A stretch of 64,000 nucleotides of DNA from a virus (IMGVR_UViG_3300001336_000003:1-64000), one strand, 5' to 3'; counted from the stretch's first letter, positions 6,302 to 63,326 are shown. The notes: generated by a model from the sequence alone, not told the origin. Numbers and translations are program-made.

Positions 6302-6382
6302 AGAAGAAGTTCCTTTCGTTTCTGTCTACAGTTAGAATGTAGTATAGAACGAAGGCCATGTCAATAGGTGTTTTGAAAAAAA

Positions 6383-6685: not shown

Positions 6686-6826
6686 TCCATGTTCTTTTCC
6701 AACATTTTTAACAATACGCGAATTTCTTTAGCGCGATTTACGTTGTCAGGATTCTTGGAGTCCATTTCAATTATACTTGCAACTCTGTCTAGACGCTTGA
6801 TTATTTCCATTTGTGCCATTTAAACC

Positions 6827-23678: not shown

Positions 23679-23745
23679 AGGTCATCTCCATTTTCATTTG
23701 AGTTCATAATATACTAATTTTATGGGAATGTCAATTGCTATTTCG

Positions 23746-23820
23746 TATAAATAGTAACGTAGTTCACGGGATATGTGAGAGTCTCCCCAACTACTCTATA
23801 ACAACAAAGGAGTTACAGCT
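23746..23820 (+). promoter_or_regulatory. homing-endonuclease cassette leader
   Basis: TATAAATA, GTTCACGG, hairpin, CCCCAACTACTCTA, AAAGGAGTTACAGCT ATG. Confidence 0.6.
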
Positions 23821-24822
23821 ATGACTATTTATCAACCTTACTTTTATATAATTCAAGAAATATCTACTGGAATGTATTATGCTGGTGCGAAATGGGCGAA
23901 AGACGCAAATCCTAATGATTTTTTAACCCCAAATGGTTATCACACCTCTTCAAAATTAGTTAAATATCTAATCGAAAAAAACGGATTGCAATCATTTAAG
24001 ATTCGAAAAATAAAAACTTTTGCAAATATGTATGATACATATGAATATGAAACAAAATTTCTAAAAAAAGTAAACGCCAAAAGTAATTCTTGTTTCTTAA
24101 ATGGGCATGAAAATAATTGGGGTGTGACGGACAATACGAACATGGTTTCAGTAAAAAACAAAAGTGGTGAAAATTTTAAAGTTAGAGTAGATGACCCCAG
24201 ATACAGATCGGGAGAATTTTTCCACAACACCAAAGGAAAAGTTGTGGTAAAGGATGAAAATGGAAATACGTTTCAAATATGTGTTGATGATCCTAGATTC
24301 ATCACAAAAGAATTGCAACACGTTTCAAAAGGGACGACTGTCGCTTTGGATACCGTTACGGGCAAAGTTAAAAGAGTTTCCACAGATGATTTCAACCAAA
24401 CAAAAAATTTAGTCGGTATTTGTAACGGTTTCGTTCCTGTAATGGATACTTACGGGAACAAGTTCTCGGTTAATAGGGGTGACGTAAGATTTGAAACGGG
24501 TGAAATAAAGCATGTTACAAAAGGTAGGGTTACTGTAAAATCTACAGATGGTAAAACTATGAGTATATATACCACTGATCCGAGATATACATCTGGTGAA
24601 TTGGTTCACAATACTACTGGAATGGTAAGTGTGAAGGATAAACATGGCAATACAATGCAAGTTAGTAAAAAAGACCCAAGATACATTTCAGGCGAATTAG
24701 TCGGGGTTTCAAAAGGCATAAAAAGAACACCTCAAATAACAAAATGCCCGCATTGCAGCAAGAGCGGCGCTATGTCTCAAATGAAAAGATGGCATTTCGA
24801 AAATTGTAAGATGTTGCGGTAA
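23821..24822 (+). CDS. homing endonuclease-like protein with tandem about 22-aa repeats and C-terminal Cys finger, inserted inside rnlA
   Basis: IYQPYFYIIQEISTGMYYAGAKWA N-domain (paralog of 53328); 7-8 repeats of VxVKDxxGNTxxVxxDDPRYxSGELVH; C-terminal CPHCSKSGAMSQMKRWHFENCK. Confidence 0.6.
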   Translation: MTIYQPYFYIIQEISTGMYYAGAKWAKDANPNDFLTPNGYHTSSKLVKYLIEKNGLQSFKIRKIKTFANMYDTYEYETKFLKKVNAKSNSCFLNGHENNWGVTDNTNMVSVKNKSGENFKVRVDDPRYRSGEFFHNTKGKVVVKDENGNTFQICVDDPRFITKELQHVSKGTTVALDTVTGKVKRVSTDDFNQTKNLVGICNGFVPVMDTYGNKFSVNRGDVRFETGEIKHVTKGRVTVKSTDGKTMSIYTTDPRYTSGELVHNTTGMVSVKDKHGNTMQVSKKDPRYISGELVGVSKGIKRTPQITKCPHCSKSGAMSQMKRWHFENCKMLR

Positions 24823-24823
24823 A

Positions 24824-25414
24824 TTACCGCAACATCAAATACTTTCCAGTGATATTATGCCTAACCGAAAGAAGTGTCAATTGTTCCTCTTTATATGTAA
24901 TTACGATTTTGTTGTTTGGGCTGGTCCACTCGAAAATGGGGGTTAGTTGTTCACGTATACACCAAGCAGCAAAGTCCTTATATCTGGTATTTTTTTCAAT
25001 AAATTCTTCTGCTTGCATTGCCACTTCTGTGATGCCCATCTTAGTCATCCAACGAATTTCGCCATTGACCTTCATAGGATGTAGCATCGAACCATCTCGT
25101 TTTTCTTCTATAAAATGTGGTTTGGTCATGTCAATATTACGGATCAACGTTTCTTCTTTTTCATTGACATTAAACCATTTATGAAAGGGTCGTGCTGCAA
25201 TTTCGCCATTTGGTGAAAATTTTATGCCACGACATTCTCTTTTTATTGCGCCCTTGGTATCATCTGGTCCGCTCATATCAAATGTATCACTTGTTGCTAC
25301 CACATAATTGACAACAAAACCAAAGTCACGCTCTGCAATGATAAATTCATCACGACCAGCAATAGCAGGGCGCACATCATCAATGTGACGAATTTCGGGA
25401 AATTTGTATTTCAT
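24824..25414 (-). CDS. rnlA: RNA ligase 1 (RnlA) N-terminal half with KxDG adenylation motif
   Basis: [26 protein letters not shown] vs T4 [38 protein letters not shown] vs [40 protein letters not shown] vs [33 protein letters not shown]. Confidence 0.8.
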   Translation of the reverse strand: [196 protein letters not shown]

Positions 25415-31321: not shown

Positions 31322-32551
31322 TCACTCCGTTATTTCTTTTTCTAGTTTCATTTTTGTGACTTGGATTTCATCCGACGATACTTGTTTGATGTCACTAGAA
31401 TCGAATGAAACAAAGAACATTTTAGAATTTTTAGTTGATTTCATACGATTTTCAGCGGCTTTTTTGGTCTTGAAAACGTATAGATAAGGTGTTTTTTCCC
31501 AAACAGTTTCCTCATCTAGACTATATATAACCCCATTCTTAGGTGAAATTGGCGGCACGAGTTTGCCTTCACTATCGACACTAACAACTTTGTAGCCATG
31601 TAGACGGGTATTTGATATACATTCAAAGTGTTCTGGCATACCAAATTTTTCTACCATGGCAGTGTTAAATGTTCCGCCAAGGAAAGAACCATCATGAATA
31701 AAATATGAATATTTTGCAGAAGTTGAATTCCAAGAAGAACCACTAAGGGAAACTTCAAGATACTTGATTTTTTCACCATTGTTATAGAACGCTACAATGT
31801 CTTCTGGTGGAATATCATGGTAATTTTCTTCACTTATGCTCAAATATTGGTCAAAATCAAACACCAAATCGCTAAGCAATTCAATTGCATTTTCAAACGT
31901 AAATTCCATGTCTTTGCGTTGAAGTTCGATTTCACGACCATAAGAACCACCGATCTGTGCTTCCAGTTCTTCCCAAGAATTAGGCATACCAGTTTTGGCA
32001 ATAGTCAATGCAAGCTTTGTGCTTTCGGGCTTGCTGATAAAGAAACCCTTTTTGGCATACTTGTGAACACGCAAAAGACTATTCAAAGGATAGCGTGTCT
32101 TGTGGTTGAACCTCAATGTCTTTGTGGCAATGTCTGGATAAAAATCAGGATGAAAATTGTATGACTTGGTGTCACAATCAAACGCGCCCATGCACACCGA
32201 AAAGTCAAAATTGTCGTAGATCTTTTCTGGAGTGTCAAAATAGTCATATGTCATGACTTGAATGATAGCACGTTCTTCTTTGTCATTCTTTACGTCATTG
32301 CTTTTGTATGTGATAGCCCTATCAGAAATGTTGACAACAAAACAGTTGCTATCATGAAGCGTGTGAATCACATCTTCAAAGCCTTTTGCACTTTTTGGGT
32401 AAATATCATAATCGTTGATATCTGTTTTTGTTGCTAAAGACAGTATTACACCGCCTGCAATATAACAACCTGTAAGACCAAACGGATCAGGATTTTTTGG
32501 AAGTCTACTCATGCCATTTCCTTTCAATGAATCATAATATAAAGGGCGCAC
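31322..32551 (-). CDS. hypothetical protein, possible nucleotidyltransferase fold
   Basis: GCYIAGGVILS..DINDYDIY loosely resembles GS..D.D NTase motif; weak. Confidence 0.25.
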   Translation of the reverse strand: MRPLYYDSLKGNGMSRLPKNPDPFGLTGCYIAGGVILSLATKTDINDYDIYPKSAKGFEDVIHTLHDSNCFVVNISDRAITYKSNDVKNDKEERAIIQVMTYDYFDTPEKIYDNFDFSVCMGAFDCDTKSYNFHPDFYPDIATKTLRFNHKTRYPLNSLLRVHKYAKKGFFISKPESTKLALTIAKTGMPNSWEELEAQIGGSYGREIELQRKDMEFTFENAIELLSDLVFDFDQYLSISEENYHDIPPEDIVAFYNNGEKIKYLEVSLSGSSWNSTSAKYSYFIHDGSFLGGTFNTAMVEKFGMPEHFECISNTRLHGYKVVSVDSEGKLVPPISPKNGVIYSLDEETVWEKTPYLYVFKTKKAAENRMKSTKNSKMFFVSFDSSDIKQVSSDEIQVTKMKLEKEITE

Positions 32552-33364
32552 TACTACTTAAATTTGTGCTTGTCAACCTCTTTCATGTCAAATTCGACAA
32601 TTTCATACATGTCGATACTATCACCATCGGGTATATATGACGTTTTGATAGAACCCCGCGTAGCACCTAGATTGTGCCAAAGATCACGTCCTTTACCAGA
32701 ACACCACCATCCATCTGGATTGAATTTCTTATCGTGTTCTGTCATAAATTCTGCTTTTTTACGGATTTTATAACACTTCATTTCCACCACCTTTGTTCAC
32801 CAACTTCTTTCCTAATCCAATCAATTTTCACATTCAACTATTGTAACAGGCGCATATCTTACGCTCAAATCATTGTGGTCCACATTTTTATACCAATTGC
32901 AAAATGCCTCTTTGCATTTATTCAGACTATTTTCTACGCAAAGTGGTTGATCCCATTCTTTACCATTAGTAGTCACATATGCTGCTGTAAAGGGCCTCAT
33001 TTGACAATCCAATCCATTTCCAACCAATTTGTATCTTCATCCATCATCTGAACTTTATCGCCATACTTTTTTTCTAGCTGATTCCATATGTAAGCATTGT
33101 TCATACGAAGTCCATATGCTTCTTTATGGCACTTATAGCAACTGCCACTTGAACCATAAAAATTGTAGTATGTTGCGGTGTATTCTTTGTTGTTATACAC
33201 GCTAGTTTCGACTGTTTCTTCACATCTGACAATGCCGCTATTCATACGCCAAGAATCGCCAGTTGCGTATCCACCAGACCAACCTGCTAAGATTTTATAT
33301 ACAGTTCCATATTGTTCTGATGTTAATTTGATAACGACCCAATTATCTGGTGTATATTCATCCA

Positions 33365-34417: not shown

Positions 34418-35263
34418 ATGGATATTTATTCCATATTGGCTTCAAAGCCTCACAATACGCACTACTTAAATAGATATATTAGATTTATTAAGCAATGTCA
34501 ACATAAAAACGTCAATCATAATGGATATGCCGAAAAGCATCATATTTGTCCCAAAGCCAAAGATATGTTTCCCGAATACGCATCTTTTAAAAAGAACAAG
34601 TGGAACCTTTCACTACTTACGCCAAGGCAACATTTCATAGCTCATATACTACTGTGGAAATCATATCCAAATATAGCCAGTATGACATATGCTGCTCATT
34701 CCATGCGAAATTATCAAGACACCAAAGTAAATAGCAGATTATACGAAAATTTGAAGATAGAATTTATAAAAACGCAGTCTACTAGGACTCACAAACAACA
34801 TCTAAACATGTCTATCGAAGAAAAGAATAAAATATCCGATAAAATTTCCACAAATTCTAAAAATTTAGTTCAGGCAAAAACCAAAGAAGGGTTGACTGTA
34901 AGGATAGCAAAAACAGAATTTGATAATAGTGTAAACTATGTTGGTCACACCAAAGGAATGACCACTGTGAAAGATGCTGATGGAAGGTTTCATTTTGTTT
35001 CTGTAGACGATCACAGAATAAAGTCTGGCGAACTTGTTGGACCCAATACTGGAAAAACTTTTAGTGAAGAAGTTAGAAAAAAGTTAAGAAAAGTCAGAAA
35101 GGGAAGAAAACATACAGAAAAAGCAAAGATGAAAATGAGAAAGCCTAAAGGACAACAGAAAAAATTAATATGCCCTTATTGTGGAAAGTGTGGTGGCGCA
35201 TCAAACATCAAAAGATACCACTATGAAAATTGCAAAAATGCAATTGTTGAACAGTTATCATGA
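34418..35263 (+). CDS. HNH homing endonuclease-like protein with the cassette-shared repeat unit and C-terminal Cys finger
   Basis: HNH core EKHHICPK....LTPRQHFIAH; one copy of VKDADGRFHFVSVDDHRIKSGELVG repeat; C-terminal CPYCGKCGGASNIKRYHYENCK. Confidence 0.7.
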   Translation: MDIYSILASKPHNTHYLNRYIRFIKQCQHKNVNHNGYAEKHHICPKAKDMFPEYASFKKNKWNLSLLTPRQHFIAHILLWKSYPNIASMTYAAHSMRNYQDTKVNSRLYENLKIEFIKTQSTRTHKQHLNMSIEEKNKISDKISTNSKNLVQAKTKEGLTVRIAKTEFDNSVNYVGHTKGMTTVKDADGRFHFVSVDDHRIKSGELVGPNTGKTFSEEVRKKLRKVRKGRKHTEKAKMKMRKPKGQQKKLICPYCGKCGGASNIKRYHYENCKNAIVEQLS

Positions 35264-39135: not shown

Positions 39136-39432
39136 TTAGTAACGCTCAACCGTAGAAGGAACATATTCTTGTTCTTTCAAAGCCGCACGATTACGGATTT
39201 CTTCAAAAGAATCATCTACAAGAAGTTCACCATCCCTGAAAACAGTGCGGAGAATATTACCTTTTTTCTCCGCAACTTCTTTAGGAACAGTGTGATATCC
39301 ACACGAACCGACACCACATTCGTATACCAACCCCAAACGACCTTTTTTGGAAATTTTTCCTTTGTCGGTAATAGGGTCTTTGAACACGTCATGCCACGTA
39401 CCTTCTGCATCTTGTCTTGCCGATGCTTTCAT
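39136..39432 (-). CDS. hypothetical protein behind late promoter + leader hairpin
   Basis: TATAAATA on minus at 39500..39507, 9-bp hairpin GGTGTGTCC/GGACACACC 39475..39497, RBS aaaggagg. Confidence 0.4.
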   Translation of the reverse strand: MKASARQDAEGTWHDVFKDPITDKGKISKKGRLGLVYECGVGSCGYHTVPKEVAEKKGNILRTVFRDGELLVDDSFEEIRNRAALKEQEYVPSTVERY

Positions 39433-39793: not shown

Positions 39794-40579
39794 TCACTTA
39801 TCGAAAATTACATTGACCCGATCTTCAAGGCTAAGATCGCCAAAATATCCCAAGTCAATTTCGTCTATTTTACTACGAATTACAGTTCTGTCAAGTGGTT
39901 TTTTACCATCTGGAATTTTATTCCAAACATCATCTGGCAGTTCTGTTTCGTAGTTCCTACGTTTCACATAAACACCATACTTCCACACGTTAGCAAGATC
40001 ATTCCAATCTTTACCTTCTTGAAGCATATATTCTTTCATCTGTTCACCACTAAGGTTTTCCATGGCCTTGTGACCACATGTCCAACGCATTATAGCAGAA
40101 ATACTATTTTTACGCGCATCTTGAACACGCCACAAAAGAACATTTGATGCTTCAATTTTGTTAGGAACGCCCCAAGACCGACAATCAAAATATGCCAGTT
40201 TATCGGTTTCGGCGTTTTCTTTCAGAAACTTGTTGAAGTTTGCTGTAGTCATAGAAGCAATGATGGAGTTGATTTTGGATGTTTTGCCACCAAAGATATG
40301 CTCGTTCTGCTTTTCACCCATACCATAGATAAGTGTGATTTCGTCTGATTGCGTATAACCGATATCAGCATTGGTAAGCTTTACAAGTTCTTTTGTGGTT
40401 TCCACCATTGTCTTTGTAAGACGATAATCGAAAGGCTTCACAAATCCCTTTGTAAATTTACTAAATCCTTTACCATCAATACGGACACATAGAATTTGTG
40501 AAGGCACAACGGTTTGTTTTGTAAACCGTCCTTCATAGTCTTTCATCCTATCGCCAAATTCATCGTTTTTCATCACCAA
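39794..40579 (-). CDS. Thg1-like protein (tRNA-His guanylyltransferase family 3'-5' nucleotidyltransferase)
   Basis: FGDRMKDYEGRF..ILCVRIDGKGFSKFTKGF..KPFD pattern and length about 260 aa. Confidence 0.75.
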   Translation of the reverse strand: MVMKNDEFGDRMKDYEGRFTKQTVVPSQILCVRIDGKGFSKFTKGFVKPFDYRLTKTMVETTKELVKLTNADIGYTQSDEITLIYGMGEKQNEHIFGGKTSKINSIIASMTTANFNKFLKENAETDKLAYFDCRSWGVPNKIEASNVLLWRVQDARKNSISAIMRWTCGHKAMENLSGEQMKEYMLQEGKDWNDLANVWKYGVYVKRRNYETELPDDVWNKIPDGKKPLDRTVIRSKIDEIDLGYFGDLSLEDRVNVIFDK

Positions 40580-41595: not shown

Positions 41596-42237
41596 TTGGC
41601 AGGCATCCCAACCATTCTAGAAACACAAAGGAGTTCCAGCATGCATTATTTATATGTAAAAACACATAATAAAACGGGTTTAAAATATTTAGGAAAGACA
41701 AAATCTAAAGATCCATTTAAATATAGGGGTTCAGGAAAATACTGGAAACGGCATATTAATAAGCACGGTTATGATGTCACAACTCAAATATTACTTGTTA
41801 CTGAAAACAAAGAAGAATTAAAGCAAACTGGCCTATTCTTTAGTAAATTATGGAATATAGTAAAATCACGAGAATGGGCAAATTTGAAATTGGAAAATGG
41901 CGATGGGGGTTGGGATCATATAATATTAAAGGGTAGAACTTTTTCAGATGAAACTAAAAGAAAAATGTCAATATCTGCTATCGTAAGACAAACTGGTGAA
42001 ACAAATTCATTTTACGGAAAAACACATTCTGATGAAACTAGAAAATTGATTGGAGAACATAGTAAAGAAAGAGGTAAAGAGCAATATACAAAAAGAATAA
42101 ATAATGGCACTCATCCTAACAACAAAAGTGTATGCCCTCATTGCAATAAAATTGGACAATATAGAGCAATGAAAAGATGGCATTTTGATAATTGTAAATT
42201 ACTTAACTCTTTGGTTGTCTTCCATCAGGCCACTTAA
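41596..42237 (+). CDS. free-standing homing endonuclease-like (YxGSG-type N-domain, NUMOD3-like units, C-terminal Cys finger)
   Basis: MHYLYVKTHNKTGLKYLGKTKSKDPFKYRGSGKYWKRHINKHGYD close paralog of 10556; GKTHSDETRKLI unit; CPHCNKIGQYRAMKRWHFDNCK. Confidence 0.65.
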   Translation: MAGIPTILETQRSSSMHYLYVKTHNKTGLKYLGKTKSKDPFKYRGSGKYWKRHINKHGYDVTTQILLVTENKEELKQTGLFFSKLWNIVKSREWANLKLENGDGGWDHIILKGRTFSDETKRKMSISAIVRQTGETNSFYGKTHSDETRKLIGEHSKERGKEQYTKRINNGTHPNNKSVCPHCNKIGQYRAMKRWHFDNCKLLNSLVVFHQAT

Positions 42238-42883
42238 CTTCTAGTGTTTCCGTATCGATATCTACATAACTCAGTTCATCTAGGCAAATAAATCTTGTTC
42301 CATCGATGATACGATCAGCATCATTGTGCCAATGACCAAATACGTGCAGTTTAGGCTTGTGAATTTCAAGCATAGCTTCCAATGCCATGCCAGTTCTGGT
42401 CTTATATTGCTTGTTCGAAAACGATTTCCCATTTTCGATGAAAAGCTTGTTTGAAACAGACAGGGGACAATCATGTGTCACCATAATCGAAGGCGCGACC
42501 AATGTATATACATCAATCAAGCGTTCTAGTTCTTCATACGAAAGTTCTTCATCATCCCAAATGTCAATGCCTTTGGTTCGCCATTGATAATCAATAGACC
42601 ACGCACCACCAACATACATGATGTCATTTTCCACCACGCCATCTGGAATCCATGTTTTCATGGTTTTACACATGGATGGATTGTCATGATTGCCGCGAAT
42701 GAAACGTCCATTGACTTTTTGCATCATATCATCAAGCGATTCATGCCAATAGTCGCCTTGCCCAAAACCAATACCCATATCGCCCACTTGAACGACAGAA
42801 GTAACATCTTGTGGAATGTTATCCAAAAGAATGCTCAGTTCGTATTTTAGACCATGAACGTCACCAATAAATCTAGTTTTCAT
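42203..42883 (-). CDS. calcineurin-like metallophosphoesterase (candidate polynucleotide phosphatase)
   Basis: GDVHG, GDMG, GNHD, GHWH motifs. Confidence 0.7.
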   Translation of the reverse strand: MKTRFIGDVHGLKYELSILLDNIPQDVTSVVQVGDMGIGFGQGDYWHESLDDMMQKVNGRFIRGNHDNPSMCKTMKTWIPDGVVENDIMYVGGAWSIDYQWRTKGIDIWDDEELSYEELERLIDVYTLVAPSIMVTHDCPLSVSNKLFIENGKSFSNKQYKTRTGMALEAMLEIHKPKLHVFGHWHNDADRIIDGTRFICLDELSYVDIDTETLEVKWPDGRQPKS

Positions 42884-43389
42884 AGTTCTTTTCCATAAAT
42901 GTCATATTTTCTAATCGCGTCAAAACCTTCATCTAGTGCAGGTTCGACATATGAATTAACCATAGACTTGATAACATGATCAGGAATAGTTTTGCCTTTA
43001 CGGCTTTGCAAACGACGATTCCATTCTGTAATATCTTCTACGGTTTCGGGAGGTGTGAAGACAATTGCCTCAACCCTGTATCCAAATTTTTTCATTTTTT
43101 CAATGATAGAACGGCGCTTTTTTACACCGAGATTTGTCTGATCCCAATACACGTCAACTTTCATTTTAATGGCTTCTGCAAGCCAAATGTCAGATTCCAA
43201 CTTGGCAGGACCAATGTGTTTATCAAAAACTTCATCGTAAGTCTTGTCAAGTTGTTTGGCAACACGTTCAAGAACATTGTCTGTGCTATAGACAAACACA
43301 GTGTCAGCAAACTCAGGATCTTCAACAAAATTTAAAAGAGTGGACTTCCCACTCGCAGGAAGTCCGACAAGAACAAAACAAGTAGGCAT
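42880..43389 (-). CDS. P-loop polynucleotide kinase-like protein (Pnk kinase-domain-like)
   Basis: VLVGLPASGKST Walker A; size 169 aa; adjacent to phosphoesterase. Confidence 0.55.
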   Translation of the reverse strand: MPTCFVLVGLPASGKSTLLNFVEDPEFADTVFVYSTDNVLERVAKQLDKTYDEVFDKHIGPAKLESDIWLAEAIKMKVDVYWDQTNLGVKKRRSIIEKMKKFGYRVEAIVFTPPETVEDITEWNRRLQSRKGKTIPDHVIKSMVNSYVEPALDEGFDAIRKYDIYGKEL

Positions 43390-46139: not shown

Positions 46140-46212
46140 TATAAATATAAGTGCCAGTCGCGGTTGCCGCCAAGAAACCCACTGACTCTATGTTTAGTAA
46201 CCCAAAGAGAGG
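46140..46212 (+). promoter_or_regulatory. homing-endonuclease cassette leader
   Basis: TATAAATATAAGTGCCAGTCGCGGTTGCCGCCAAGAAACCCACTGACTCTATG...GAGGAACACAGCAC ATG. Confidence 0.65.
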
Positions 46213-47089
46213 AACACAGCACATGTATATTTATCTGATACGCAATATCATCAATGACAAGATTTATATTGGTCAAACTACAAAAACACCCGAAAAAAGA
46301 TTTAGGCAGCATGTATACACAAGTAAAAGACTAAAGACACAACTATATAACTCTATGAACAAATACGGCGAAGAAAATTTCATAGTAGAAGTTCTGGAAG
46401 TTGTTCAGGACAAGAGCCTTCTAGACCCAAGGGAAATATATTGGATAGCGGAACTGGAGCCAGAGTATAACATGACTATAGGTGGCCAAAGAAGTAGTAC
46501 CACAGAAAAATACACGGAAGAGCGTAAACGCGAAAGATCGGCAAAAAGTTCCGCTTCCATAAAAAAGATGTGGGATTCCATGAGTGAAGATGAACGCAAA
46601 GAACGCATGAAAAAAACCCACGCAAAAACAGATTACAAATCACATTCTGATAAACTTTCGGTTTCTAGAAGAAGATTTTTTACGAATGAAACTGAAGAGC
46701 AGAAAGCAATTAGAATAGAAAAAGCTAAAATAGGTGCCAAGAAAACAGAAAAAATCAAATGTCATTATTGTGATCAGGAAATTGGTGGTGGTAAATATAA
46801 TCTAGTAAAACACGAAGAAGTATGCTCAAAAAATCCATCATCAAAAAATTTTGGGAAAAGCACAAAAAAGAAACAACCTTATAGCTATACAATACTAGAT
46901 CCAAACAATACAAAGCATATAACATCATCATTTAAGGGATTTTGCAAAACACACAATCTTTCAAGATATTTGCTTATGAAAAATATTGGAAGTGTAGTTG
47001 AAAGCGTTGACGCTAAAACTAATAACGCCAACGCAACAACAATAAATACCTTTGGGTGGTGTTTACTTAGGATTGATGATCTGACTTAG
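46151..47089 (+). CDS. GIY-YIG homing endonuclease with NUMOD3-like repeats and C-terminal Cys finger
   Basis: YIYLIRNIINDKIYIGQT..RFRQH..LYNSMNKYG..NFIVEVLE..REIYWIAELEPEYN is the canonical GIY-YIG domain; TEERKRERSAKSS/ERKERMKKTHAKT units; CHYCDQEIGGGKYNLVKHEEVC. Confidence 0.85.
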   Translation: MPVAVAAKKPTDSMFSNPKRGTQHMYIYLIRNIINDKIYIGQTTKTPEKRFRQHVYTSKRLKTQLYNSMNKYGEENFIVEVLEVVQDKSLLDPREIYWIAELEPEYNMTIGGQRSSTTEKYTEERKRERSAKSSASIKKMWDSMSEDERKERMKKTHAKTDYKSHSDKLSVSRRRFFTNETEEQKAIRIEKAKIGAKKTEKIKCHYCDQEIGGGKYNLVKHEEVCSKNPSSKNFGKSTKKKQPYSYTILDPNNTKHITSSFKGFCKTHNLSRYLLMKNIGSVVESVDAKTNNANATTINTFGWCLLRIDDLT

Positions 47090-47678: not shown

Positions 47679-48156
47679 AATTTTTCCTTCTTGTTATTTC
47701 CAATAGTCTTTAGGCATATTGGTCCAAGGTGTAGACCAATAAATTACGAAGTAGTATAAATTTAACTGTGCGTGTGGGCAGTCATACCAGAATTTATGTA
47801 GACCGATTGTTTGCAATCCCCAAATTTTACGAATATAGGTGTCGTTATCAAATTCACTGTAAGCACCACGCATTTCTTTATCCATTAGGCCAATTTTGAA
47901 GTAGTAAAAATATCGGTTCGTGCCAAGCGTCTTTTCAGACTGTCCCCATTCAATGCCTTCACGGCATAATTTAAATTTCCAAGGATATTGTTTCACTTCT
48001 TGTTCATCTTTTCTAAATATAATTCATATGCGGAATCACATGCGTCACATGGTTTCCCATCTACTGTTCCATGACCACCGTTACAAGTGTTGTTCCGACA
48101 TTTACCGCAAATTACAACTTCGTGTTCGCACAGATCACAGTATACCCATTTATGAT

Positions 48157-48597
48157 TCATCTAAACATCCTTGTAATATCATCACGAATTGACATAAGAA
48201 TTTTTCCTAATTCGTTTTTACCTTTACCTAATGGGGATTGCCCCCAAAAAGTATCGCCCCATGTGTTTCCTTCAATAAGTTCACAACCTTTGGTAGCCAT
48301 AAGTTTTTCCATCAATTCTGGATTTTGATCAAACTTCGCGCTGACTACACTTCGCATAACAGGTAATTTCGTATCTTCCCAATAAGGTTTCAGGTTGATT
48401 TCCGAACCTAATCTTTTAGCTTGGCCAGCACTAATACCACCATAAGCAAAATGATTCCACACATCTTCATTAATGCTTTTCATAGCTTGGTAAGCATGTT
48501 CAGCAGTAGGCCATTTGTAGCCCATGTATGCAAATTCCGATGGATGAAAATTTGACAAGAAACGATATTCACCTGAAAATGACGTTATTTGAGCCAT
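48157..48597 (-). CDS. NADAR (YbiA-like) domain protein
   Basis: FLSNFHPSEF...WPTAEHAYQAMK...ELGKILMSIR match NADAR signature. Confidence 0.7.
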   Translation of the reverse strand: MAQITSFSGEYRFLSNFHPSEFAYMGYKWPTAEHAYQAMKSINEDVWNHFAYGGISAGQAKRLGSEINLKPYWEDTKLPVMRSVVSAKFDQNPELMEKLMATKGCELIEGNTWGDTFWGQSPLGKGKNELGKILMSIRDDITRMFR

Positions 48598-49004
48598 GCT
48601 ATCCTTTTACCTTCTTTCACACGTCTTTCATGTTCTTCTTCGGAACTTGGATATCTCCAACCCCATATAGCAACAAGAGTCATAAAGATTCCTAAGTAAG
48701 CAATAGCAATCAAATTTCCAGTTGTAAACCACATAATACCCAAAGAAATCAACATTGTCAAGACCATTAAATACTTAGCTTTTTGGGGAAAGATTCTTTT
48801 TTCTTGCCATCCAATAAGGAATGGGCCAAAAATTTTATGTGAATATAACCAATTGTGCATACGATCACTGGACTTGGCAAAACAATATGCAGCGCCAACA
48901 GCGGGTGTGCTCCAAGGAATCCCAGGCAATATTAGGCCCAAATATGCTATGCCTATTAGAATGACTCCTAAACTGAACCAAAGTGCTTTTTTAACATTAA
49001 TCAT
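48585..49004 (-). CDS. DUF454/YbaN-family inner membrane protein
   Basis: LILPGIPWSTP motif and 4 TM segments. Confidence 0.55.
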   Translation of the reverse strand: MINVKKALWFSLGVILIGIAYLGLILPGIPWSTPAVGAAYCFAKSSDRMHNWLYSHKIFGPFLIGWQEKRIFPQKAKYLMVLTMLISLGIMWFTTGNLIAIAYLGIFMTLVAIWGWRYPSSEEEHERRVKEGKRIAWLK

Positions 49005-50375: not shown

Positions 50376-50834
50376 TTAATACCTCTTTACAGGAAAATTA
50401 GCTTTTTCGGAAATTTGACACATATGTGAAGTGCCAACGCCACCCTTGAATGCTATAACCAAGTCTGGATTTTCTTCAGTTAACATTTGCTGATTTCTGA
50501 TAGGCCCCGCCGCCTTTTTGTGTTTATCCCAATCGGCTGGATAAGGTCTACATTCAACATTGTTTACTTCAGCCCATTTCTTGGCCCAAGAATCTGCGCC
50601 AACTGCTTCGCCTTGAATTATAATAAGGTTACGTTCAAGTTCTTCTACAGACATTTTCAGCACGTCAAGCTTATCGAACAAAAACTTAACTTCTTGCTGA
50701 TTTATGACTTTTTGTCTGTTTGCATTGACAGTCCAACCATAGTCGCGACCACCACACACAATAACCTTAAAATCAAGTTTTTGCATGTTGTTCATTCTTT
50801 TCTGCTTGTGCTTGCATTTTCTTATAGAATTCAA
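50376..50834 (-). CDS. SLOG-fold DUF2493-like protein
   Basis: KVIVCGGRDYG ... IIQGEAVGADSWAKKWA ... KAAGPIRNQQML. Confidence 0.45.
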   Translation of the reverse strand: MNSIRKCKHKQKRMNNMQKLDFKVIVCGGRDYGWTVNANRQKVINQQEVKFLFDKLDVLKMSVEELERNLIIIQGEAVGADSWAKKWAEVNNVECRPYPADWDKHKKAAGPIRNQQMLTEENPDLVIAFKGGVGTSHMCQISEKANFPVKRY

Positions 50835-52662: not shown

Positions 52663-53235
52663 TTATTTTTCGTGGACGTGTAATTCACTTTCACGAATTA
52701 TGTCATCGTTATGTGTGGTTGCCATTTCATCCATGACGATGCTTTCTTTCTTTGGTAGTTTGCCACGAATCTTGGAAACAAATTCATCAAATGTGTGAAC
52801 AGGTGTAACGCCAACAAGACGACACATAATAACCACGTTGCCGTAACGATAAAAATCTTCTGGACAACATACCACAATGTTCTTTTTTAAGCCAATACAA
52901 TATCCTAATTCCATCAACGTAATTGGTGATTTTGTGTTGGGGTCAAAATAGAATACGACTAAATCAGATCTTTTGATATGATCCAGTTCCCAATTTACCT
53001 GTTGATGAAAAGGAGTGTTAGGTGTCGGGTCTTGAACCCATGACGAATCCCAATCATCGCGTCTAGGGTTGAAAGCGATAATTTTTTCATCTTTAAGTTC
53101 TTTGGTAAGTCTTTCCTGCCAATTATCTGCCATGGTTCCTAGACCACCTTGACCAGAAATACTACCAGCTAAGAACATTCTGGTAAAAGATTCAAATTTG
53201 CTATCATCTGGCGATTTTATCTCAATCATAATCAA
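52663..53235 (-). CDS. nucleoside 2-deoxyribosyltransferase-like (Rcl/DNPH1-like) protein
   Basis: MFLAGSISG ... SDLVVFYFD ... SPITLMELGYCIGLKKNIVVCC. Confidence 0.5.
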   Translation of the reverse strand: MIMIEIKSPDDSKFESFTRMFLAGSISGQGGLGTMADNWQERLTKELKDEKIIAFNPRRDDWDSSWVQDPTPNTPFHQQVNWELDHIKRSDLVVFYFDPNTKSPITLMELGYCIGLKKNIVVCCPEDFYRYGNVVIMCRLVGVTPVHTFDEFVSKIRGKLPKKESIVMDEMATTHNDDIIRESELHVHEK

Positions 53236-56857: not shown

Positions 56858-58525
56858 CTAAACTGCCATAGGTGCTTTAATTGTTGGGTGGCACTGATAA
56901 TTTTTAAGTGTAAACATATTTACCGTATTAAAATTGAATCCGTATGTCAAACCTTTAGACAAAACAAAGTCTTCTGATATTTCTAATGTTGGTAGAGGAT
57001 ATTCTTTTCTCGTAAGTTGTTCCCGAACCTGTTCAATATGATTATTATATATGTGTGCATCACCTATGGAATATACGAGTTCACCAACTTGCATATTAAC
57101 TTCTCTAGCCAAAATATGAATAAGAAGTGCATATGAAGCAATGTTGAAAGGCGCACCCAAAAATGCGTCATTTGATCTCATTGTTAACATCCCGCTTAAT
57201 TTGTTCTCTCTGACAATAAGTTGAAAGAAACAGTGGCATGGTGGTAGTGCTTGCATATCTATAACCGTAGGATTCCATGCTGACAATATGATTCTTCTTG
57301 ATTCGGGTTCGTTTTTTATTTGGTTTATTATATTTACGATTTGGTCGGCCACCACCTTTTTACGAAATACATGTCCATTAGAAGCTTGAATATATTTTAG
57401 ACTATACCCATTATAACTTTCACCTGTGTCTAACAAATAAGAAATCCTCGCCAGTGTCAAATCATCTATGCTATTGCATATGTCTGTTTTATACAGATAG
57501 TCTTTGTATGTATCATAGTGGAAAACTCTTATTTTTCTATGATGGTCTACTTGTTTATTGGCTATTGCCAAGTTCATCTTTTTTGGTAGAAATATGCAAG
57601 TGTGTTTAGAATAGATGTCAGAGCAATAGTAATCTTTATCCAATTCGTAGTCATTATTCATCTTAACCCATTCATAAAATCCTGGGATTTTATCTATGTC
57701 TAGTAAAAAATTCTTAAAATCCATCCAACTATCAGAAACACGAACACCCCTAGCCCCATAATTTCTATAACTTAGATGTTTTTTATTATAGCATCTATCT
57801 ATCATATGAATCCATAGTTTATATGCTTTCTTATAGTAAGATGGTTTATCACCTCTGAATGAATTGTTTGCCACCCCCTTAATCAAAGGGTTGAGGCAAA
57901 TCTTCTTAGGTATATTACTTCCTAAAATTTTAGTCAATTCACCCGTATCTAGTGCTTGCGCTATGTAAGTTTTTCGATATTTGTCGTTGCTGCACAGACC
58001 TAATATTTTAATGGGTCTACCAGATTTAGATGTAAATCTATAGCCCGTATATTTGTGTCCATCGCCGTAGTCTGCAAATTCAATAACTTCTTTAGCCGTA
58101 TCTATCGTTTCTTTGCGTTCTGGAACTTCTGTAATTTGTTCGCTGGCAGAATACCAATTTCTCCACATACTGCCATACACAGGACCAAGAAGCCCTATAG
58201 ATTCGATAGAATCATACCCTAAATTTTTTCCTTGGTGTATTAGATTATCTGTCCATATCGTTTGTTTACCTACCAATTCCTCACGGGGTTTGCCATATGT
58301 CAATTCAGCAAGTCGTCTTTCATCTGTGCCGCCTTCAAGAAACCATAACAATTCACCCACAACAGATTTCCATGCGAGTTTCTTTGTGGTGACGGCTGGA
58401 AACCCATCGTTCAAATCAAATCGCATCTGATAACCAAAAACAGAACGTGTTCCAACACCAGTTCTATCTTCAACATCAACACCATTTTCCAAGACGTGTC
58501 TAATCAAATCATGATATTGTTGCAT
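56858..58525 (-). CDS. td: thymidylate synthase ThyA carrying an in-frame about 265-aa insertion that contains an HNH-endonuclease motif
   Basis: N-terminus DRTGVGTRSVFGYQMRFDL..FPAVTTKK..LLWFL..LGPVYGSMWRNW and C-terminus SRRIILSAWNP..ALPPCH.FFQ..RSNDAFLGAPFNIASYALL..GDAHIY match ThyA; middle has KLWIHMIDRCYNKKHLSYRNYGARGVRVSDSWMDFKNF (phage HNH family). Confidence 0.85.
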   Translation of the reverse strand: MQQYHDLIRHVLENGVDVEDRTGVGTRSVFGYQMRFDLNDGFPAVTTKKLAWKSVVGELLWFLEGGTDERRLAELTYGKPREELVGKQTIWTDNLIHQGKNLGYDSIESIGLLGPVYGSMWRNWYSASEQITEVPERKETIDTAKEVIEFADYGDGHKYTGYRFTSKSGRPIKILGLCSNDKYRKTYIAQALDTGELTKILGSNIPKKICLNPLIKGVANNSFRGDKPSYYKKAYKLWIHMIDRCYNKKHLSYRNYGARGVRVSDSWMDFKNFLLDIDKIPGFYEWVKMNNDYELDKDYYCSDIYSKHTCIFLPKKMNLAIANKQVDHHRKIRVFHYDTYKDYLYKTDICNSIDDLTLARISYLLDTGESYNGYSLKYIQASNGHVFRKKVVADQIVNIINQIKNEPESRRIILSAWNPTVIDMQALPPCHCFFQLIVRENKLSGMLTMRSNDAFLGAPFNIASYALLIHILAREVNMQVGELVYSIGDAHIYNNHIEQVREQLTRKEYPLPTLEISEDFVLSKGLTYGFNFNTVNMFTLKNYQCHPTIKAPMAV

Positions 58526-59724: not shown

Positions 59725-60408
59725 TTAGGAAAAGAAGCTTGTCAGGCCATTGTTGCCTTCAAGTCTTTTCTTCGCTATGTCAAAATATTTATCATCCAAT
59801 TCTATACCGATAAAAGGCAATCCTAGTCTTCGTGCAGCAACACCTGTGCTACCAGAACCCATAAATGGATCAAGAACAATACCATTGGAACCATCACCAA
59901 TGCCATGTATCAAATCTTGCATCAATGAAACGGGTTTACAAGTTGGGTGCCCATGATCTTCAGATGGACTTGGCCTTCTATGGGAAAATACGGATTTCGG
60001 TCTTTTATTGGCGAATGATCTTTTGCCTTTTGTGGCATACCAAATAATATCGTGCATGGGCGCAAAAGAACCAGATAGATCACCCATGCCGTGGTGCATT
60101 CTATTCCACACACCTTGTGACTTCAAATCGAACCCGTATTGTTCTATTGATTGACGCCAAACATGACTTGTGTTCCAATCGCAAAAAGAAATAAGCCCCC
60201 CTCCGTCTTTCAAGACGCGGAAAGCTTCACCTAACCATTCAGTGAAAAATACATCATCATTCGCAATTGCTTTATGTCTAGGACCATCTTTTCCGTGATT
60301 TGAACGAAAATTCATACCATAAGGCGGATCTGTGACCACCATATCAACAGACCCGCTTTCAATTTCAGACATTTTTTCTAAACAGTTACCATTTAACAGT
60401 TTTATCAT
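59725..60408 (-). CDS. beta-class N6A/N4C DNA methyltransferase (motif IV DPPY before motif I FMGSGST)
   Basis: SVDMVVTDPPYGM; FRVLKDGG; LDPFMGSGSTGVAA. Confidence 0.8.
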   Translation of the reverse strand: MIKLLNGNCLEKMSEIESGSVDMVVTDPPYGMNFRSNHGKDGPRHKAIANDDVFFTEWLGEAFRVLKDGGGLISFCDWNTSHVWRQSIEQYGFDLKSQGVWNRMHHGMGDLSGSFAPMHDIIWYATKGKRSFANKRPKSVFSHRRPSPSEDHGHPTCKPVSLMQDLIHGIGDGSNGIVLDPFMGSGSTGVAARRLGLPFIGIELDDKYFDIAKKRLEGNNGLTSFFS

Positions 60409-61046: not shown

Positions 61047-63326
61047 TCAAGCATCATCCGAAAAGAAATTATCTAGCGTAGTCTTTTTTTGGACAGCTTC
61101 TATCCTTGCTTTCGCAATTTCAATATATTCTGGATCAAGTTCAATACCAATGAAGTCGAACCCTTCAAGTTTTGCGGCTTTGCCAGTCGAACCAGAACCC
61201 ATGAAAGGATCAAGAACAGTTCCATTAGGTGGAGTTACAAGTTTCACAAGATAGCGCATTAGTTCTGTTGGCTTCACCGTAGGATGATTATTTTTGGAAG
61301 GTATGAAAGGTCTATTTGCTCTTTCTGGAACCGCAGCACCTTCATGTTTCCATTCCTTGTCAGGAAGATTTTCCAAACCCTCATTGCGATCTTTCTTGGA
61401 AGTCTTGGCACAGTAAAAGAAACGGGCAGCGGAACCTTCGTCATTGTAATTGCTAGGTGATTGTGGTTTATCGCCATTAAACATGGAAGTATCTTTGTTG
61501 TCATACTCGTTTCCAGCATAAGAATATACACCTTTGTTATTACCAGAACCAGTTTTTGGAAACAACTCTGTCACTTCTTCACTACCATCATGAATGAGGT
61601 TGGCGGGGAAACGACCAACGCTGTCGTCCACCTTAGCCCGTTCGGTTATGCCTCCGTTGTGAAGCGCAGTACTCCCTGCGCAACCCCCGCTAGTTTTCTT
61701 CGTGCCGTTCAAATCAACTCTACTTTCATCAATATTGATGCCACCTGTGCCATACTTTAACACATTAGCAGCAACAGTATTTTCACTTAGTGGCTTTCTT
61801 GCAACAGTGATCGGTTCTAATGCGGGCTTTAGAGCAGTTCCCCAACCATTCCATTTTTTGGCTTCATCTGTAGCGGGTGCAGTTATTTGAATAACATTTT
61901 TTGCACTTTTGTCTTCTGAATTTCCAGTATATGCGTTTGGCCTAAATCCGTGTTCTGCATTAGTTTTAGAAATGTGAGCCATTCCGCCAGAGTTTGTTTT
62001 TGTCTCTGATATAATTTCGCGTTCTGCACCAGACATTTTATCAATAGCTTTACTAATATCCAATGACTTCGGAAATCCGCTTCCATAACCCCATCCCACC
62101 ATTCCATCACGACCAAATGTAGCATCAAAAAGCTTCATCTGTTCTGGAGTCAAAGATTCAAAAAGTTGTTGGGCTGTGGTATTAGTATCATATAGATATG
62201 TGACCATATCACGAATTTCAAAACCAGCATCTTCAATGTTGACTGCCATCCTATGTTGCGTCCTAGTGCCAGCAAATGCCAACAAATGACCGCCGGGCTT
62301 CAAGACTCGCAAACATTCTTGCCAAATTTCAGTAGTAGGGACGTCATAATCCCATTTTTTACCCATAAAACCACTGGAATTTGTATAAATATCAGATACA
62401 GATTTAAGTAAATTTTTAGGAACATAAAGATGCAAAAAATACTCAGAACTTGTCCCGTTTGCAGTATCCAATATGAAGCCGACCCTAACAGGCTGAAGCA
62501 CGGTAGACAAACTACTTGCAGCAAGGTTTGTTCTTACAATCTTAGGTCTGATAAAATTAGAAAAAGTGTTACTCTTGAGTGTGGTAATTGCGGCACTGGA
62601 ATAATCAGAAGCCCTAGTCAAATCAAAAGTAAGCACGGGCACATCTTCTGTTCCATTTTCTGTAAGAGTGAAGCTATGAGCAAAGGAATCATCCCCCATG
62701 TTATCACTACCCCATACAATATCAGGAACCCCATCCCTGAAGATAGGAAAAGGGAAATCCATTCCAGAATTTGGGAAACAAGAAGAAAAAATGGAACTGA
62801 TAGGCACACTAAAGAAACCATACGAAAATTGTCCGAAATTACCACTAAAAACATCGTCAGCGGTAAAATCAATAGAATTTCCAAAATCGAATATGAAGTT
62901 TCCGATAAACTTACTTCCATTGGCGTCAAATTTATCCCTCAATATGGTATCAGGGATATGAAAACTGGAAGATACTGTGCTTCTGTCGATTTCTATCTCC
63001 CTGACTTCAACATTGCCGTCGAAGTAAATGGGACTTTCTGGCATAGAGACCCTAGATTTTATGATAGGAATAGTCTCACACCTGCTCAAATCAGAACACA
63101 TACTAGATTTGAAAGAAAAGTCGCTATATTGGATTCTCTTAATATCACTCTCGTAGAAATTTGGGAGCATGATATTAAAACTTTTCCAGACAGCTTTATT
63201 GACCCTCTTATAAAGGTTATCGCCTAAACCATAAGGGGGATCTGTAACAATGCTATCCACACTGTTATCTGGTAATTCTTTCATCTTATCAAGGCAATCG
63301 CCAAGCATCAATTTAACTTCAGTCAT
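61047..63326 (-). CDS. large beta-class DNA methyltransferase whose ORF runs in frame through an antisense-inserted endonuclease cassette
   Basis: SVDSIVTDPPYGL (aa 24-34), then about 290 aa Ser/Phe-rich low-complexity region, then IWQECLRVLKPGGHLLAF, long TRD, LDPFMGSGSTGKAA; paralog of 59725..60408. Confidence 0.8.
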   Translation of the reverse strand: MTEVKLMLGDCLDKMKELPDNSVDSIVTDPPYGLGDNLYKRVNKAVWKSFNIMLPNFYESDIKRIQYSDFSFKSSMCSDLSRCETIPIIKSRVSMPESPIYFDGNVEVREIEIDRSTVSSSFHIPDTILRDKFDANGSKFIGNFIFDFGNSIDFTADDVFSGNFGQFSYGFFSVPISSIFSSCFPNSGMDFPFPIFRDGVPDIVWGSDNMGDDSFAHSFTLTENGTEDVPVLTFDLTRASDYSSAAITTLKSNTFSNFIRPKIVRTNLAASSLSTVLQPVRVGFILDTANGTSSEYFLHLYVPKNLLKSVSDIYTNSSGFMGKKWDYDVPTTEIWQECLRVLKPGGHLLAFAGTRTQHRMAVNIEDAGFEIRDMVTYLYDTNTTAQQLFESLTPEQMKLFDATFGRDGMVGWGYGSGFPKSLDISKAIDKMSGAEREIISETKTNSGGMAHISKTNAEHGFRPNAYTGNSEDKSAKNVIQITAPATDEAKKWNGWGTALKPALEPITVARKPLSENTVAANVLKYGTGGINIDESRVDLNGTKKTSGGCAGSTALHNGGITERAKVDDSVGRFPANLIHDGSEEVTELFPKTGSGNNKGVYSYAGNEYDNKDTSMFNGDKPQSPSNYNDEGSAARFFYCAKTSKKDRNEGLENLPDKEWKHEGAAVPERANRPFIPSKNNHPTVKPTELMRYLVKLVTPPNGTVLDPFMGSGSTGKAAKLEGFDFIGIELDPEYIEIAKARIEAVQKKTTLDNFFSDDA
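62384..62391 (+). promoter_or_regulatory. late promoter TATAAATA of the embedded endonuclease, located inside the methyltransferase ORF
   Basis: TTTGTATAAATATCAG...taggaacataaagATG. Confidence 0.55.
62430..63227 (+). CDS. Zn-ribbon + Vsr/DUF559-like PD-(D/E)XK endonuclease (homing-endonuclease-like), embedded antisense within the methyltransferase gene
   Basis: CPVC..CSKVC and CGNCG..CSIFC zinc ribbons; nuclease core RYCASVDFYLPDFNIAVEVNGTFWHRD ... LVEIWEHD. Confidence 0.75.
   Translation: MQKILRTCPVCSIQYEADPNRLKHGRQTTCSKVCSYNLRSDKIRKSVTLECGNCGTGIIRSPSQIKSKHGHIFCSIFCKSEAMSKGIIPHVITTPYNIRNPIPEDRKREIHSRIWETRRKNGTDRHTKETIRKLSEITTKNIVSGKINRISKIEYEVSDKLTSIGVKFIPQYGIRDMKTGRYCASVDFYLPDFNIAVEVNGTFWHRDPRFYDRNSLTPAQIRTHTRFERKVAILDSLNITLVEIWEHDIKTFPDSFIDPLIKVIA

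Follow-up and report, generated by a model that had tools for sequence, protein, structure and literature searches.

A Glu-type NADAR protein of an uncultured T4-like phage as a candidate antagonist of DarT1-type DNA ADP-ribosylation

The 64,000-nucleotide stretch of viral DNA IMGVR_UViG_3300001336_000003:1-64000 (the window in what follows, meaning the whole stretch that was analysed) contains, at positions 48,157 to 48,597, a gene for a NADAR-domain protein that we consider, with a probability of roughly 0.6, to be a base-ADP-ribose glycohydrolase of the same type as AdfN-Bas32, the enzyme of an Escherichia phage, by which DarT1-type guanine adducts would be cleared from the phage DNA. What the analysis shows is that the protein belongs to the family and has its predicted fold, that its active site is conserved and the gene is under purifying selection in an orphan setting in a phage genome, and that the experimentally validated Bas32 enzyme is the one it most resembles. 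We hold with higher confidence that the protein would hydrolyse guanine-linked ADP-ribose (G-ADPr) in vitro than that it plays an anti-DarT1 role. By homology it falls into a class already represented by validated orphan antitoxins (AdfN-T4, AdfN-Bas32 and AdfN-Bas60), namely the stand-alone NADARs of lytic phages. An earlier note on this DNA had suggested a counter to DarTG-type defence in general; that suggestion can be narrowed, with homology to Bas32 (46% identity, E 6e-39) favouring guanine-type DarTG1 as the target and thymidine-type DarTG2 dropping out, because NADARs act on guanine-linked and not on thymidine-linked ADP-ribose (PMC11125620, PMC11257639).

NADAR proteins and DarT1

Schuller et al. 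(2023, PMC11543638) established that NADARs hydrolyse G-ADPr and identified DarG1 as DarT1's antitoxin, and Cihlova et al. (2024, PMC11125620) found that DarT1-linked and sigma70-linked NADARs, YbiA and the NADAR of phage T4 all cleave G-ADPr in vitro, while none cleaves thymidine-linked ADP-ribose. The earlier note had given the removal of ADP-ribose from guanine in DNA as background. All NADAR families tested strip G-ADPr from RNA as well as from DNA (PMC11125620, PMC11833690, PMC12945103), and phosphate-linked ADP-ribose is left uncleaved (PMC11833690).

The role of such enzymes in phage infection has been described by Johannesman et al. (bioRxiv 2024, PMC11257639; Nat Commun 2025, PMC11825919). 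The T4 protein gp30.3 (AdfN) is necessary and sufficient for T-even phages to be resistant to DarTG1, and acts through catalysis (PMC11257639; PMC11825919), but it is effective only in the context of a T-even infection (PMC11257639). The unrelated NADARs of the T5-like phage Bas32 and of Bas60 neutralise DarT1 in uninfected cells, and they rescue DarTG1-sensitive phages by several logs with no effect on DarTG2 (PMC11257639; PMC11825919).

Family membership and predicted fold

The open reading frame (ORF) of the window protein lies on the minus strand, which the earlier note had left unspecified in giving the coordinates, and encodes 146 amino acids (aa) from an ATG at 48597 to a TAG stop at 48157. 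The motifs which that note had quoted can all be read in the translation, with SNFHPSEF at residues 15-22, WPTAEHAYQAMK at residues 29-40 and ELGKILMSIR at residues 129-138.

48157..48597, minus strand: coding sequence of the NADAR-domain protein, a stand-alone core domain of the Glu type (ORF, Pfam PF08719, phrog_1017, AlphaFold2, Foldseek)

The profile search proposed earlier as a check matched the protein to PF08719 (NADAR, DUF1768) at 86.6 bits (E 2.9e-24), where the gathering cut-off is 35.1, and the alignment spans positions 9-162 of the 163 in the profile. In PHROGs the protein matches phrog_1017 (E 9.1e-41), a family annotated as of unknown function, and a sequence search of the PDB retrieved E. 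coli YbiA (2B3W, E 1.1e-20) and the P. nicotianae NADAR (PnNADAR; 8BAU, E 1.9e-5). Matches of this strength are well outside what chance would give. An AlphaFold2 model, built from an alignment of 62 sequences of the clade, had a mean predicted local distance difference test score (pLDDT) of 90.9 and a predicted template modelling score (pTM) of 0.86. When this model was compared with the PDB by Foldseek, YbiA 2B3W (E 4.1e-11, TMq 0.85) and the complex of PnNADAR with ADP-ribose 8BAU (E 1.6e-6, TMq 0.80) were its sole significant matches. The modelled chain thus has the predicted NADAR fold, an alpha-helical core with small beta hairpins, and is superposable on YbiA and PnNADAR. PADLOC returned a weak match to the candidate model PDC-M42C only, which is uninformative, since YbiA and the Bas32 protein match the same model.

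The active site

ADP-ribose is contacted in PnNADAR by E43, K50, R79, W89, R93, E125, D130 and W133 (Schuller et al., PMC11543638). Mapped through HMMER alignments, with a correction for the 2-residue offset of the deposited 8BAU chain, these positions correspond to E33, K40, S65, W73, K77, E109, D115 and W118 of the window protein, so that seven of the eight contacts are kept; the invariant K61 and R62 are near Ser65. Across the 62 members of the clade, E33, K40, K61, E109, N111, W113 and D115 are invariant and W118 is conserved in at least 90%. Asp115, followed by Trp118, occupies a pyrophosphate/ribose contact position, as does Trp118 itself. With its catalytic and ADP-ribose-binding residues retained, the window protein is, as judged by its sequence, a bona fide NADAR. 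The codons of four of these residues are the following.

48499..48501, minus strand: Glu33, equivalent to PnNADAR E43 and T4 AdfN E36, which positions the distal ribose (aligned to 8BAU 'SSEQYF')
48478..48480, minus strand: Lys40, equivalent to PnNADAR K50, T4 AdfN K43 and E. coli C7 K95, diphosphate binding (alignment)
48271..48273, minus strand: Glu109, the catalytic residue diagnostic of subfamily, equivalent to PnNADAR E125 ('LIEGN' aligned to 8BAU 'LYEAS')
48253..48255, minus strand: Asp115, equivalent to PnNADAR D130 ('WGDTFWG' aligned to 8BAU 'HDAIWG')

Mutational data exist for the counterparts of the first two: the AdfN E36A mutant is inactive (PMC11257639), and activity is lost or impaired in the K43A and K95 mutants (PMC11257639, PMC12945103).

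The residue at the position of PnNADAR E125 divides the superfamily: the YbiA and 'NADAR' families have Glu there, DarG1 (BC4488) has Asp, and the phage proteins of the T4 type have His (PMC11543638, PMC12945103). The division has a bearing on substrate range, inasmuch as the Glu-type families (YbiA and NADAR) remove both cytosine-linked ADP-ribose (C-ADPr) and G-ADPr, while removal is confined to G-ADPr in the Asp type (DarG1) and the His type (T4) (PMC12945103). With Glu (E109) at the diagnostic position, the window protein belongs to the Glu type.

Relationship to characterised NADARs

The closest experimentally characterised relative is AdfN-Bas32, the product of bas32_0066 of the T5-like Escherichia phage IrisVonRoten/Bas32 (Markadamsvirinae), to which the window protein is 46% identical over its full length (E 6e-39). 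Both are stand-alone core NADARs of ~146-149 aa from lytic phages, with no toxin adjoining, both share the Glu-type active-site block IEGNTWGDT(F/Y)WG, and both genes are placed amid genes of nucleotide metabolism, including those for ribonucleotide reductase (RNR), dihydrofolate reductase (DHFR) and ThyA. When a hidden Markov model (HMM) of the window-NADAR clade was scored against reference NADARs, it gave 155.9 bits for the Bas32 protein, 115.2 for E. coli YbiA and 12.3 for T4 AdfN. The two proteins do differ: the phages are of different lineages (a T5-like siphovirus in one case and a T4-like myovirus in the other), 54% of the residues are not shared, including an R-to-S replacement at the PnNADAR R79 position, and the window gene, unlike that of Bas32, is probably coupled in translation to a gene for a DUF454 membrane protein.

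The Bas32-type gene itself varies in occurrence among T5-like phages. Escherichia phage IrmaTschudi (Bas28; our locus L009) has no NADAR gene at ~32300..33200, between a 93-aa ORF after RNase H and a 171-aa ORF, where Bas32 and Salmonella phage SP01 carry one. The Bas32-type NADAR is in this respect shown to be an accessory gene of the indel type, which fits the report that only some Markadamsvirinae have it.

AdfN-T4 (gp30.3, of the 'phage NADAR' family of the Straboviridae) resembles the window protein as an orphan, core-only NADAR (~150 aa) from a T4-like phage, and the role proposed for both is the same, removal of guanine ADP-ribose to defeat DarTG1. In AdfN-T4, however, His replaces the catalytic Glu that the window protein keeps as Glu109, and the gp30.3 gene adjoins the DNA ligase gene 30, whereas the window NADAR gene is ~18 kb from the ligase gene. 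We rejected identity with gp30.3 on the basis of a best BLASTP E of 4.8, the 12.3 bits against the clade HMM and the presence of Glu109. A tblastn search of the 64-kb window, at BLAST-level sensitivity, found neither a gp30.3 homologue nor a second NADAR.

DarG1 (BC4488 family) shares with the window protein the superfamily, the chemistry of guanine de-ADP-ribosylation and the conserved E and K residues, but it has Asp at the diagnostic position, carries a basic beta1-beta2-alpha1 N-terminal extension and is encoded beside DarT1 (PMC11543638). The presence of Glu109, a protein that begins at the core (its residue 6 aligns with residue 21 of YbiA) and the lack of an ADP-ribosyltransferase (ART) neighbour led us to reject a DarG1 identity as well, and no DarG1-type chain was among the matches of the profile and fold searches of the PDB.

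Among cultured phages the closest homologue is phiOC_p185, a 'NADAR family protein' of the Ochrobactrum phage vB_OspM_OC (Kyanoviridae), which is 55% identical over 92% of the protein. It has the same size, and the phage that carries its gene is a T4-like jumbo phage, where it stands in a series of small hypothetical genes close to those for dCMP deaminase and HflK/Band-7, gene types that the window also encodes. The immediate neighbours are different from those in the window, as there is no DUF454 gene and no ClpP-like gene nearby. More widely, relatives of the window NADAR occur in 521 records of varied phages (of Streptomyces, Vibrio and Listeria, T5-like phages, PBS1 and others), and the His-type AdfN of T4 in 1,511 phage records, mainly of Straboviridae that infect enterobacteria, Aeromonas, Acinetobacter and Vibrio.

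Proposed role and alternatives

We propose that, in a lytic T4-like phage, the NADAR gene would be expressed as part of a long leftward cluster that consists of small accessory genes and genes of nucleotide metabolism. Its product would bind the ADP-ribose moiety in a conserved helical pocket formed by Glu33, Lys40, Trp73, Lys77, Asp115 and Trp118, and would use Glu109 to hydrolyse the N-glycosidic bond between the ribose and the exocyclic amine of guanine, possibly also of cytosine, in ADP-ribosylated nucleic acid. Infection would trigger a host ART of the DarT1 type, the phage DNA would be modified and its replication blocked, and the phage NADAR might then strip the adducts and let replication proceed, as an 'orphan antitoxin' like AdfN-T4, AdfN-Bas32 and AdfN-Bas60. 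In this scheme we infer the enzymatic activity, its substrate (G-ADPr in DNA), the timing of expression and the existence of a DarT1-like system in the host. A further gene of the same phage with a likely counter-defence function, an Acb1-like gene described below, was counted in favour of the anti-DarT1 role.

Several considerations weigh against this proposal. One study found E. coli YbiA and the T4 NADAR to be active in vitro but unable to rescue cells from DarT1 (PMC11125620), and because of this failure activity in vitro is no guarantee of an anti-DarT role in vivo. Earlier than the experiments cited above, Iyer et al. (2022, PMC9503650) had used gene context to argue that soluble derivatives of ADP-ribose are the targets of most phage NADARs. 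The arginine that contacts the pyrophosphate in PnNADAR (R79) is replaced by Ser65 in the window protein, which also has a near-neutral computed isoelectric point (pI) of 6.8, as compared with 9.4 for YbiA and 9.0 for T4 AdfN, and is devoid of the basic N-terminal extension for which single-stranded DNA binding has been proposed in DarG1. Finally, the protein scores just over the cut-off of the riboflavin-intermediate N-glycosidase model TIGR02464, and its best match of solved structure is YbiA.

These last observations are at the heart of the principal alternative, in which the protein would be a YbiA-like housekeeping N-glycosidase that acts on intermediates of the riboflavin pathway (5-amino-6-ribosylamino-uracil phosphate and its precursor) or on another ribosyl-amine, and would thereby serve the control of metabolite damage during infection without any evasion of defence. 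The window protein narrowly exceeds the curated TIGR02464 cut-off (76.1 versus 73.7 bits), has the diagnostic Glu as in the YbiA family and has 37% identity with E. coli YbiA (2B3W; COG3236/TIGR02464; E 1.1e-20, TM 0.85), whose Glu-type active site it shares; several homologues are labelled 'ribA/ribD-fused uncharacterized protein' or 'N-glycosidase YbiA' by JGI. The score is marginal, however, when set beside the 169.5 bits of true YbiA, and the model fails to separate a riboflavin function from an anti-DarT1 function, because the anti-DarT1 enzyme of Bas32 also matches it, with 66.3 bits. The clade profile places the window protein nearer to Bas32 than to YbiA, and the ORFs scanned in the window and in the related loci showed neither RibA nor RibD nor another riboflavin domain. 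YbiA differs further in being chromosomal, as part of an operon with dinG, rhlE and ybiB that LexA controls, where the window gene is a phage gene, and in having ~15 additional N-terminal residues and a strongly basic character. Furthermore, YbiA-type enzymes themselves strip G- and C-ADPr from nucleic acids (PMC11125620, PMC12945103). We regard a purely metabolic role of this kind as quite improbable.

An enzyme that removes ADP-ribose from nucleic acids might also be directed at something other than DarT1-modified DNA, namely at ADP-ribosyl-cytosine or at guanine adducts in RNA, or both, laid down by a pierisin/ScARP-like or YarT-like protein or by a host toxin or defence not yet known. To our knowledge, no ADP-ribosylating defence directed at cytosine or RNA acts on phages, and nothing in the content of the window specifies a substrate. 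A breadth of substrates that would suit such a role is nonetheless documented for the Glu type to which the window protein belongs through E109, since these NADARs remove C-ADPr and G-ADPr from both DNA and RNA (PMC12945103); YbiA removes both adducts in vitro (PMC11125620, PMC12945103), and a YbiA-type NADAR serves as the antitoxin of YarT, an ART unrelated to DarT (PMC11125620). The region is also rich in genes of RNA repair (Thg1, Rnl1 and a kinase and phosphoesterase pair). The sole phage phenotype in vivo for a protein of this type is nevertheless that against DarTG1 (PMC11257639, PMC11825919), and we consider a target other than DarT1-modified DNA improbable.

The view of Iyer et al. (PMC9503650), applied to the window protein, would make it a processor of soluble ADP-ribose derivatives, such as cyclic ADP-ribose (cADPR)-like immune signals or toxins derived from NAD, or the by-products of NAD-dependent RNA repair, in concert with SLOG, Macro and Nudix proteins. 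These authors link SLOG with NADAR and Macro domains in phages (PMC9503650), and elements of that setting can be found here: a YAcAr (YspA-related SLOG) gene at 50376..50834 on the minus strand (PF10686, E 1.7e-12), 1.8 kb from the NADAR gene; a nucleoside 2-deoxyribosyltransferase-like gene at 52663..53235 on the same strand (PF15891, E 1.4e-30), within 5 kb of it; and a Macro-domain gene at 6379..6810 on the plus strand, ~1 kb 3' of the NADAR orthologue in two related T4-like contigs (L015 and L016 of our homologue set), which suggests that the two classes of ADP-ribose hydrolase occur together in part of the clade. A remnant of a nicotinamide phosphoribosyltransferase (NAMPT) gene in the window and a NadM-Nudix-like gene in contig L001 also point to a module of NAD salvage in the lineage. 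The SLOG gene, on the other hand, does not adjoin the NADAR gene, and the linkage is kept in L001 but not in L012-L014. The Pfam scans of the window ORFs, which were made partly on concatenated ORFs and with a slightly lower sensitivity for that reason, detected no ART, DarT, Macro, Nudix, Sir2, KptA/Tpt1 or RibA/RibD domain. We know of no experimental support for the processing of soluble ADP-ribose by any NADAR. Phosphate-linked ADP-ribose was not cleaved by the NADARs tested (PMC11833690), and we judge this possibility very unlikely. The reading that we continue to prefer is that of an enzyme of the AdfN-Bas32 type directed at DarT1 adducts.

Gene neighbourhood and selection

The NADAR gene is flanked closely on both sides by genes of the same strand.

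48585..49004, minus strand: upstream gene for a DUF454/YbaN-type inner-membrane protein, with a 13-nt overlap between its stop and the NADAR start (PF04304, E 3.5e-27)
48602..48606, minus strand: Shine-Dalgarno-like AAGGA, 4 nt 5' of the NADAR ATG and within the end of the upstream gene (read by eye)
47993..48160, minus strand: downstream ORF for a Cys-rich product of 55 aa, with a 4-nt overlap between its ATG and the NADAR stop (ORF)

The 13-nt overlap with the DUF454 gene is kept in the closest relatives (contigs L001-L003), but the DUF454 gene is not beside NADAR in L012-L016. From this arrangement the NADAR gene is probably co-translated with the DUF454 gene, which would be an optional neighbour. 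The DUF454 gene appears to be unusual among the cultured phages that underlie PHROGs, because it has no match there. Homologues of the 55-aa ORF, which matched nothing in Pfam or PHROGs, are found only in L001 and L002 (77-93% identity), and unrelated small ORFs fill that slot in L012-L017. We therefore discarded the notion that the NADAR gene has a constant partner in an operon, since the 55-aa ORF is kept in the nearest relatives only, the DUF454 gene is optional and an upstream 267-aa protein occurs in some relatives. Because neither of the ORFs that adjoin the NADAR gene matches an ART family in Pfam, we regard the gene as an orphan and not as one half of a toxin-antitoxin pair. A scan for sigma-70 promoters and terminators around the gene yielded 23 sites, against 25.9 expected from shuffled sequence, and is uninformative on that account. 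One of the sites, at 48733..48761 on the minus strand, is a near-consensus sigma-70-like sequence (TTGACA, a 17-nt spacer and TATTAT; 11/12 matches), located inside the DUF454 gene, ~135 nt 5' of the NADAR start, and not distinguishable from chance.

A search of a collection of 5.8 billion proteins gave 2,777 matches at E <= 1e-10; the best 120 of these range over ~121-190 aa, mostly 140-150 aa, and contain a NADAR domain in each case. Five contigs with homologues of 95%, 72%, 57%, 61% and 53% identity were examined, and all are contigs of T4-like phages. Four of the five have a common gene order, which runs from class II RNR through a deoxyribosyltransferase-like gene, a cell-wall hydrolase and small ORFs to NADAR, and continues past it with a small ORF, a ClpP-like protease, an AAA_33 kinase and a metallophosphoesterase. 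Just before NADAR this order includes a 246-270-aa protein in some contigs, and DUF454 in the closest relatives only. The remaining contig (L014), which carries the homologue of 61% identity, is T4-like as well, though the genes around its NADAR are different. One homologue labelled 'Anaerolineaceae MAG' lies in this same phage synteny and for this reason is probably from a mis-binned phage contig. The gene is under purifying selection, with a ratio of nonsynonymous to synonymous substitution rates (dN/dS) of 0.13 against the 95%-identical relative and 0.11 against the 72%-identical one. Taken together, related metagenomic T4-like phages conserve it at 50-95% identity, with a dN/dS of about 0.12. 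Since its position is kept in related T4-like contigs while the immediate neighbours vary, the NADAR gene behaves as a self-sufficient accessory gene.

The phage and its other genes

The window has ~37% G+C, carries no tRNA genes and has nearly all of its genes on the minus strand. Its T4-type major head protein (phrog_138, E 5e-161), which is accompanied by a head scaffolding protein, is 61-64% identical to those of the Sinorhizobium phiM12-like phages, Methylophilales phage Melnitz, Stenotrophomonas phage DLP_6 and T4-like cyanophages, and because of this identity we assign the sequence to an uncultured T4-like myovirus. A megablast of positions 46000-51000 against 50,697 phage records produced no match. 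Other products encoded in the window include an ATP-dependent DNA ligase, a Dda-like helicase, a class II RNR, ThyA, DHFR, dCMP deaminase, an Rnl1-type RNA ligase, Thg1, a PAAR protein and many homing endonucleases.

At 7488..7964, on the minus strand, an Acb1-like 2H phosphoesterase is encoded that matches PF23474 ('Anti-CBASS protein Acb1') with E 1.1e-12 and 48.3 bits against a cut-off of 27. This product is probably an anti-CBASS nuclease, in which case the phage would possess at least one further gene of counter-defence.

The NAMPT remnant mentioned above is a 98-aa ORF at 39136..39432 on the minus strand, which corresponds to the last ~87 residues of a phage NAMPT (phrog_448 positions 409-495 of 500, E 7.5e-16). 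Upstream of it there is no room for the rest of the enzyme, as a 94-aa ORF and then Thg1 (39794..40579) follow, and the ORF looks like what is left of a NAMPT/NAD-salvage module that has been deleted. Contig L001, a related one, has its NadM-Nudix-like gene (CTP_transf_like plus NUDIX) just past Thg1. Genes that resemble those of RNA repair are dispersed over the window, at 42203..43389, 39794..40579 and 5169..5612, all on the minus strand; together with the Rnl1 ligase the set comprises an AAA_33 kinase and a calcineurin-like phosphoesterase (a pair like that of polynucleotide kinase, PNK), a Thg1-like 3'-5' nucleotidyltransferase and a PTH2-like protein.

Several genes of the window are interrupted or enlarged. 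The T4 Rnl1-type RNA ligase is split in two over 23118..25414, which could be due to the insertion of a homing endonuclease or an intron or could represent a disrupted gene.

24824..25414, minus strand: N-terminal nucleotidyltransferase part of Rnl1 (PF09511 positions 1-152 of 227)
23821..24822, plus strand: 333-aa ORF with repeated motifs that separates the two Rnl1 parts (ORF)
23118..23678, minus strand: C-terminal part of Rnl1 (PF20819)

The thymidylate synthase (56858..58525, minus strand, 555 aa) matches its Pfam family in two stretches, the C-terminal one at residues 378-555, on either side of an in-frame insert of ~270 aa with an HNH endonuclease (phrog_2081, aa 158-396); instead of being a free-standing homing gene, the insert could be intein-like or an inserted domain. 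A 759-aa DNA methyltransferase (61047..63326, minus strand) has similarity to N6_N4_Mtase only in its first ~36 residues and in residues ~318-755, with ~280 residues in the middle that match nothing, and a second, ordinary N6/N4 methyltransferase is encoded at 59725..60408. The many homing-endonuclease-like ORFs are mostly oriented opposite to the main gene strand, and a GIY-YIG gene (PF01541, E 1.7e-13) abuts the ClpP-like gene ~1 kb 3' of the NADAR gene.

46151..47089, 41596..42237, 34418..35263 and 10556..11389, plus strand: homing-endonuclease-like ORFs (PF01541 for one GIY-YIG gene; the others by eye)
8792..9514 and 3509..4888, minus strand: homing-endonuclease-like ORFs (3509..4888 by PHROGs; 8792..9514 by eye)

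Implications for the T4-like phages

Orphan antitoxins of the NADAR type have already been published for phages (2024-2025), a cultured relative is annotated 'NADAR family protein' and NADAR domains have been counted in 27% of myoviruses (Iyer et al., PMC9503650); for these reasons the gene of the window is a fresh example and not a new type of system, and with mechanism and concept both in print it opens no new question. It is conceivable, although we think it unlikely, that the enzyme protects its non-enteric T4-like phage from an ADP-ribosylating defence besides DarTG1, for example an ART system that targets cytosine or RNA, because the Glu type removes both cytosine and guanine ADP-ribose in DNA and RNA. 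In this reading the close translational coupling to the gene of the DUF454 inner-membrane protein within the sub-lineage might also mark a functional relationship.

If the anti-DarT1 reading is true, the Bas32-type (Glu-type) NADAR would be a conserved accessory gene across an environmental, Kyanoviridae-like clade of T4-like phages, which would use the Glu type where the enteric Straboviridae mainly use the His-type AdfN, a type not seen in the 64-kb window. The divergent and compact enzyme of this clade would be useful for comparisons of substrate specificity among the NADAR types, and the reading would also mean that ADP-ribosylation of phage nucleic acid at guanine, and possibly at cytosine, exerts selection well outside of E. 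coli.

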